From NCBI GenBank assembly GCA_037834085.1, contig JBBMKC010010713.1, positions 1 to 40,958 of the forward strand: a stretch of 40,958 bases of DNA, in the 5' to 3' direction. Every line of letters starts with the position of its first letter. Within the stretch, counting starts at the first letter, position 1. Under the pieces are notes generated by a model. It was not told the origin of the DNA, ran no database searches, and saw only the letters and a program-made list of their open reading frames with translations. A program made the translations under genes and the position numbers. This document shows, one piece after another, positions 30,920 through 32,100 of this stretch. The stretch is from Bipalium vagum (taxonomy: Eukaryota).

Positions 30920-32100
30920 ATTTATTATCAAGATACATGTTTCGAACTATTACCAGTTCATCGTCAGTCATTCATATTTAAAACTACAAATTTTAGTTAC
31001 CTAAATGAGGATCTAATTTTTAATTTAAATATTTTGCCAAATTCTGAAAGGTCGATAGTATTATTTTTTTCTTATTTTAAAAATCTTTTAAAAAAATTTA
31101 ATTTTACATTTTTAATTAATCAGACACTACATTGACAATTCATTGGCTTTTACTTTCTCCTGTTTGAATATTGATCTCCAGTTTCCGCTCTTTTATTAAA
31201 AACGATTCACATATCTTCCGTTCATCGTTATTATCAAAATTATTCTTATTTACTCAAAATTCTTCAGCGTTAACTTAACCTTTTCGCACAACACAATTCA
31301 AAGAATGATCTAAAGCTTTACTGGTTCTGCTTAATTGCGAATGTTCACTAATAAGTGTTCTGAGGTGACGCTGTGTCTCCCCTATGTATATGTTATTAAA
31401 GACGTGACATTTAAATTGGTATACAAAATTAGCTTGCAATATTGCAGATGTTGGCGTTTTAATTTCTAAACAACTTTTCGTTTTCGTTATCATTGAAATT
31501 ACTTTTAGATCTTCATGCTCAACAGTTTTTTCTATTATGTTCTTGAATGTTCTGAACTCCTTTTGAAAATAGTATTTTAAGTACGTTCTTGAACTTTTCT
31601 TTTTTCTTTTCATTTTTTACTTTTTCTTTTTCGGTTATTCATTTATTCAAATCAATAAATTTAGGCTAAGGTAAGGAAAATAGGGTCAAGAATATTTTTA
31701 AAGTAAATATATAATTTGGGTTTGAAGTCTTCATTCATGGGAATAAATTACGTTTTACTTTAAACTTTAAAAACCCACAACATCCACATGTTTATAAGTT
31801 TCCATGTTCTCCGTTAAATAGGTAGATATTAGACTAAAATACTCATTTTGGGTATTGAGGTTGCTCAATAGGAAATGCAATTCTCATCTGAAAAATGAAC
31901 TTTTGAATGATATAACCGAGGACATCTTTGTCTATTTTTTTCCGAATCTAACTTTTGACCTTTAAAGATTGAAATTTTTTTTTTGATAGGTCTTGTATGA
32001 TTAGCTGATATTCACATTTTTAAAATTATTATATATCTTATTCAATCGAAGAGAATAAAACTTAAATCAATAACGAAGGATTTTCTGACTGTGTGGAACA
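30920..32100 (-). mobile_element. Penelope-like retroelement 3' part (GIY-YIG endonuclease plus pLTR)
   Basis: FVYQFKCHVFNNIYIGETQRHLRTLISEH and ERKICESFLIKERKLEINIQ; hammerhead motif downstream. Confidence 0.88.
30925..30975 (-). ncRNA. Minimal type I hammerhead ribozyme motif (Penelope pLTR)
   Basis: CTGACGA-T-GAACT-GGTAAT-AGTTC-GAAA-CATG-TA: intact core, 5-bp stem II, palindromic ACATGT stem III. Confidence 0.75.

Follow-up and report, generated by a model that had tools for sequence, protein, structure and literature searches.

A decayed Penelope/Poseidon-type element copy of Bipalium vagum with a minimal type I hammerhead motif in its terminal repeat

Minimal hammerhead ribozymes (min-HHR) in the pLTRs of metazoan Penelope-like elements (PLEs) were described by Cervera and De la Peña (2014; PMC4209133), and a low activity was reported for them in the same work. 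The role of the PLE hammerhead has been called unclear (PMC8557442). In PAc, the Poseidon element of Anolis carolinensis, the AUG lies upstream of the cut, the hammerhead cleaves in the presence of the element's protein, and insertion does not need cleavage (PMC11167929). Here, we analyzed a stretch of 40,958 nucleotides of Bipalium vagum DNA (contig JBBMKC010010713.1), hereafter the window, which carries a hammerhead motif on its minus strand. Very probably, this motif is a minimal type I hammerhead that belongs to the terminal repeat of a truncated and decayed Penelope/Poseidon-type copy, where it is likely an inert relic.

The motif and the element copy in the window

The hammerhead motif covers 30967-30934 on the minus strand and has the layout of a minimal type I hammerhead with a bulged U. 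The parts of the motif and of the element copy are the following:

30846..31644, minus strand: 5'-truncated Penelope/Poseidon-type copy of ~800 bp, with ORF end, UTR, hammerhead and the first ~30 codons of the next unit's ORF
31116..31644, minus strand: decayed linker and C-terminal GIY-YIG endonuclease, with 3 in-frame stops, loss of the second Cys of CxxC and a frame change near 31590
30968..30976, minus strand: stem I 5' strand, with standard pairs at I.1 and I.2 and U-U at I.3
30967-30961, minus strand: core CUGACGA (C3-A9), letters read in the sequence
30960, minus strand: unpaired U separating A9 from G10.1, replaced by A in the sister family; an unpaired base here is a feature of the class in PMC4209133
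30944..30959, minus strand: stem-loop II of 5 bp, GAACU (30959-30955), loop GGUAAU (6 nt), AGUUC (30948-30944)
30935..30943, minus strand: G12-A13-A14 (GAA, 30943-30941) and palindrome ACAUGU (A15.1 to U16.1, 30940-30935), the predicted dimer helix III
30936..30938, minus strand: AUG in ACAUGU, likely start codon of the element ORF, from the frame of copy L135 and the relatives L163, L170 and L176
30934, minus strand: H17, here A; predicted cut 3' of 30934, inside codon 2
30846..30933, minus strand: 3' strand of stem I and remnant of the N-terminal ORF, closed by an optional ~30-nt tail (about 30868-30846)

The initial annotation had read a hammerhead with CUGACGA, stem II and ACAUGU in this strand, cut 3' of 30934 and with an imperfect stem I, and all of this was recovered here; its description omitted the unpaired U at 30960. 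The order of the catalytic core (CUGANGA, GAAA, NUH) is that of type I min-HHR, the G10.1-C11.1 pair of the class is present as G30959-C30944, and the palindromic 15.2-16.2 and loop 3 region is given by ACAUGU, with a predicted self-duplex of 6 bp at -4.6 kcal/mol. Stem-loop II was present in all predicted folds, and the sister family has the same stem II with a 10-nt loop in 6/6 copies examined. Such a core is unique in the window, where shuffles contained 0.04 on average (4/100 shuffles had one). Across the 441-Mb assembly, we obtained 177 matches to the exact core pattern of 33 nt and 474 to a looser pattern, which takes in the sister family with its 10-nt loop II, versus 0 in the backwards control. 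The Rfam scan proposed in the initial annotation returned no hammerhead family at the gathering score, nor with the limit relaxed to E=10. Compared to shuffles, the 59-nt motif had a folding z-score of -0.14, and the fold energy alone therefore gives no support for a hammerhead.

The window copy differs from most of the 41 other copies at three places: N7 is C (U in 39/41), H17 is A (U in 35/41), and a U at 30931 converts the third pair of stem I from U-A (24/41) to U-U (14/41). The stem I helix has 4 bp in the U-A form; in the window copy it is reduced to 2 bp followed by U-U, with a weak alternative register, compared to ~4-5 bp in the min-HHR class, and its predicted energy is also weakened (-0.5 versus -1.6 kcal/mol). 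Taken together, sequence comparison confirms a genuine minimal type I hammerhead motif of the PLE pLTR kind, an already known class. By these comparisons, every testable sequence feature of the PLE min-HHR class is present, except the full helix I in the window copy.

Homology to other copies begins at 31644, and those copies reach further 5'; the sequence at 31650-32350 is single-copy. On the 3' side, homology to a run-through copy stops ~89 nt past the cut. The GIY-YIG domain was detected by Pfam with E=0.0046 in the window copy and 1.5e-5 in copy L008, to which the window endonuclease is 76% identical over 155 aa. Class features and family homology thus agree with the proposal that a minimal type I hammerhead lies in a PLE pLTR, in sense with the GIY-YIG ORF, which is also the location of min-HHR. 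The in-sense position stands, and the distance of about 170 nt after the ORF end does not, because it was counted from a premature stop (31142-31140); open-frame copies extend 7-8 codons beyond, and the gap to the hammerhead is really about 150 nt. No second hammerhead core was found in the window, and the single motif is fused to GIY-YIG coding sequence.

A minus-strand gene upstream of the motif, as first proposed, was not confirmed by Pfam and repeat analysis of 31650-40958. No host gene was identified among 74 minus-strand frames of at least 32 aa, a search that short exons could escape and in which Pfam returned only a transposase match and one weak DUF match. Part of 33900-34450, as well as 36200-36350, consists of dispersed repeats, and 32500-33900 is mostly single-copy. 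The ~155-bp repeat at 36200-36350 (406 candidates, 85-94% identity) adjoins a mariner remnant and is possibly a terminal repeat or a MITE. Mos1/Tc1-mariner transposase remnants (Pfam HTH_48, DDE_3 and Transposase_1) were observed at 5336-5620(-), 27127-27369(-), 36438-37291(+) and 39480-40376(-). Repeat blocks are common to 4434-4943 and 39453-40312, and three degenerate AT-rich copies with a spacing of 167-171 nt lie at about 6890-7403.

The family, its distant relatives and the start codon in the palindrome

A 421-nt query including the motif gave 1817 candidates, 40 of which were scored, with 78-84% identity apart from the self match; damaged motifs may be under-represented in this first copy set, which was picked by likeness to the motif-containing query. 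Truncation at the 5' end is variable, the other copies beginning at varied points up to 1155 nt 5' of the motif. The 3' ends of 75 alignments, a set in which family B copies are present and two loci appear twice, form two clusters about 30 nt apart, at +61..77 (33/75) and +83..99 (34/75) after the cut. The optional tail and the variable 5' truncation are both those of Penelope/Poseidon PLEs. Family copies encode an RT (Pfam RVT_1, E=1e-11) together with a C-terminal GIY-YIG (E=1.5e-5), and the pieces held by the overlapping copies L117, L111 and L008 align as N-terminal domain, RT and GIY-YIG with full-length relatives; no intact full-length copy was present among the assembly loci fetched. 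The endonuclease of L008 and others has CxxC..H..H..C (CCHH motif), of which the window copy lacks one Cys, and the linker carries no Zn-finger motif. By domain order, CCHH and linker, the family fits Penelope/Poseidon.

Several variants were observed beside this main form. Loci L118, L121 and L124 have a common junction, with an apparently inverted ORF-end/UTR piece in place of the hammerhead 5' half and GUUC-GAAA-CAUG left, and may represent a sub-lineage that amplified without the ribozyme. The third stem I pair is U-U, in combination with GUU, in L005, L007-L009, L014, L016, L023-L025, L027, L034, L045, L047 and L112, mostly on shorter terminal branches, a subfamily in which the ribozyme may be weakening in the youngest lineage. 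Inverted pLTR pieces adjoin PLE copies in L023 (708-836), L058 (1459-1582) and L166, which is the known inverted 5'-truncated arrangement. A third pattern gave 14 matches with other stems versus 3 in controls; these are more hammerhead-like families, present in small contigs (L139-L150), whose stem II sequences differ and whose palindromes read AUAUAU or ACGCGU.

Since a protein search with the window GIY-YIG fragment gave no match, an RT stretch from copy L111 was used instead as a protein query (148 matches). The distant set consisted of 77 metagenome loci encoding related PLE proteins, and a sense hammerhead was observed in 30 of them. With a pattern of core letters only, there were 38 sense matches in the 77 loci, compared to 0 in reversed and complemented controls; stem II pairs 2-4 are formed in 34/38, with several pair types per position, and palindrome and NUH are present in 36/38. 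Antisense core matches numbered 4, of which 3 were full motifs. Because the loci are related and not independent, these figures are counts and not probabilities. H17 is U in 12/32 distinct HHRs of these relatives, which carry both C3-G8 and U3-A8 cores. Two related metagenome PLEs (L153 and L155) have near-identical hammerheads with a C3-G8 versus a U3-A8 pair, a covariation as in PMC4209133. Covariation among genomic copies had been proposed as a check of the motif: no compensatory pair change was found among the 41 copies of family A, and covariation of stem II appears across the metagenome PLEs. The helix covariation that characterizes min-HHR is thus visible in sequences of related PLEs, though not inside the family.

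The position of the ORF start was analyzed in family copies and in relatives. The motif continues directly into the ORF N-terminal domain in L113, L129, L132, L135 and L137; a guessed junction pattern gave 0 matches, and the true junction was taken from run-through copies. In L135, one frame (with internal stops) leads from the ACAUGU AUG to a conserved FLxxC..LIPKF motif, with FLxxC at residue 60, compared to residue 54-62 from the first Met in six relatives. ORFs of 821 and 826 aa open at the palindrome AUG in L163 and L176, as does the N-terminal domain of L170, i.e., the palindrome AUG is the ORF start in 3/3 distant relatives with ACAUGU at the 5' end. In family B, the palindrome AUG alone stays in frame because loop II is 4 nt longer. 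The start is not unique in family A, where stem I holds a further in-frame AUG and another two follow 25 codons downstream. Overall, the AUG in ACAUGU is likely the element's start codon, and the predicted cleavage would then fall in codon 2.

The ORF starts in stem II in L181 and downstream of the cut in L161, L179, L192, L200 and L209 (25-181 nt after the cut in several relatives), and a universal AUG before the cut was rejected on these downstream starts. In the RT tree, the four metagenome loci with an ACAUGU start form one clade (support 1.0), and the window family falls outside it with very low support. Literature searches covering openly accessible main text returned no paper that places an AUG within the palindrome of helix III.

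Decay after insertion and alternative readings

We compared 41 motif-spanning copies, from loci picked by the 421-nt, RT or N-terminal query. All 11 core bases are kept in 20/41, versus 18.7 expected under independent decay. Rates of decay were calculated on 37 other copies as departures from the majority base, columns with <80% agreement being left out. Departures reached 21/406 (5.2%) in the core and 17/369 (4.6%) in stem II, compared to 220/4640 (4.7%) in the GIY-YIG ORF and 242/4505 (5.4%) in the UTR (core versus ORF plus UTR, Fisher p=0.91). These results show that the motif decays at the background rate after insertion, contrary to the suggestion of the initial annotation that the core had stayed intact in a decaying ORF context. 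The window copy departs from the majority at 24/351 scored columns. At this level, the core would remain unchanged with a probability of 0.46, and core, stem II and palindrome together (25 structural sites) with a probability of 0.17. It has 0 changes at the 25 structural sites versus 2 at 8 free sites, which leans toward preservation without reaching significance (p=0.40). Its core looks intact by chance, and the copy is one decaying relic among hundreds, of little importance itself.

By contrast with the copies after insertion, the replicating lineages do show constraint on the motif when their sequences are compared. Families A and B have the same core and stem II, whereas their flanks are 64% (60 nt upstream) and 69% (70 nt downstream) identical, in a comparison of 13 A and 6 B copies for which the search pattern dictated the core letters and left the inner stem II pairs free. 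By codon position, the two families diverge in an only weakly protein-like manner (0.34, 0.28, 0.39).

One could still suppose that selection has maintained the window hammerhead for the cleavage of a host or read-through transcript. Its core, stem II and palindrome are intact despite a long terminal branch (0.134), its GUA triplet escapes the 12-bp palindromic trap predicted for GUU copies (inactive self-duplex of -9.4 versus -17.0 kcal/mol), and a partner in trans from abundant family RNA is possible in principle. This intactness is nevertheless expected by chance, and the copy was noticed because it is intact; 12/41 other copies pass the same test of core, stem II, palindrome and NUH, and the GUA triplet is common to the neighbours of the window copy in the copy tree. 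Stem I is weakened, and a solitary motif whose proximal stem I has 2 bp is poorly suited to cleave in cis. With no host gene identified, no second hammerhead in the window and a U-U third pair, the processing of host read-through transcripts proposed in the initial annotation found no support, and we regard selection on this copy as very unlikely. Even further from plausibility, and in our view negligible, is a chance match or a C/D-box snoRNA-like sequence: the best Rfam match was SNORD113 (E=0.33), dismissed as chance at 19 bits versus a gathering score of 36, and the genome matches without any in the controls, as well as the same position and covarying stems in distant PLEs, refute it.

The motif could also be catalytically dead already in the family, and kept as start-codon context or as a protein-binding hairpin only. 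The majority GUU form is a perfect 12-nt palindrome spanning G12-A14 and the cut site, with a predicted 12-bp inactive self-duplex of -17.0 kcal/mol versus -4.6 for the active helix III, and in the younger subfamily the third stem I pair is U-U. In PAc, HHR mutants were without effect on in vitro insertion, and none of the RNA-seq reads had its end at the cut (PMC11167929). However, families A and B have the same non-coding half of the motif (C3-A9, stem II, GAA) despite a difference of about a third in their flanks, relatives have both C3-G8 and U3-A8 cores, and the PAc HHR cleaves in the presence of its protein (PMC11167929). GUU is also normal in distant relatives, and the rule that GUU means decay was rejected on their 12 cases of U17. 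A family-wide loss of catalysis seems very improbable to us, and we favour a hammerhead of the PLE kind whose window copy is a relic.

A model for the element and comparison with known systems

In the parent element, the motif lies at the meeting of one unit's UTR and the next unit's ORF. The clusters of 3' ends and the behaviour of PAc suggest that uncut or re-ligated RNA is reverse-transcribed from a point about 65-95 nt beyond the cut; such a start past the cut site would leave the whole ribozyme at the 3' end of every insertion. By analogy with published relatives, two copies would pair via ACAUGU, complete helix III and cut after N17, and this cleavage would probably be slow and helped by the element's protein (PMC4209133; PMC11167929). 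The inserted motif thereafter decays at the background rate. The likely AUG precedes the cut by 4 nt and would therefore be missing from cleaved RNA. A doubtful but possible extension is a dose-dependent off switch in several Penelope lineages, in which the dimerisation palindrome is the start codon: a build-up of RNA and protein would lead to dimers, codon 2 would be cut and the AUG lost, uncut or circularised RNA being translatable. If this were true, residue 2 (Phe, Leu, Ser or Tyr) would be tied to the cleavage triplet. The AUG-in-palindrome layout, in the window family and in intact relatives such as L163 and L176, offers a simple way to test whether translation is regulated by the cut.

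Like the min-HHR of PMC4209133, the motif has a type I core, an unpaired base 9/10.1, G10.1-C11.1, a small palindromic helix III and a short, poorly defined helix I, and it occurs mostly as single dispersed copies at truncated elements. In contrast, helix II has 5 bp here versus 7-8 bp in Schistosoma, and stem I of the window copy has 2 bp before U-U. A likely start codon lies within the palindrome here, and the text on min-HHR available to us from PMC4209133 makes no mention of one.

PAc shares with this family a C-terminal GIY-YIG and a HHR that overlaps the beginning of the ORF, the cut lying downstream of the AUG (PMC11167929). The two 3'-end clusters match the two reverse-transcription start sites of PAc and its optional 30-40 bp tail; PAc insertions come from unprocessed RNA, and the same probably holds here. 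The AUG is placed differently, at the beginning of stem II and 26 nt before the cut in PAc, in helix III and 4 nt before it here. In addition, PAc is expressed and has been assayed, whereas the window copy is dead and known from its sequence alone.

As in the Penelope/Poseidon clade of PMC8557442, RT is followed by GIY-YIG with CCHH and there is no CX2-5CxxC linker, and the pLTR with HHR, the tail and the inverted 5'-truncated partners are likewise common to both. Finally, non-LTR retrozymes also carry a hammerhead related to that of PLE pLTRs (bioRxiv 10.64898/2026.07.22.740005); theirs stand in tandem, non-autonomous, non-coding arrays, whereas here a single motif is joined to GIY-YIG sequence.
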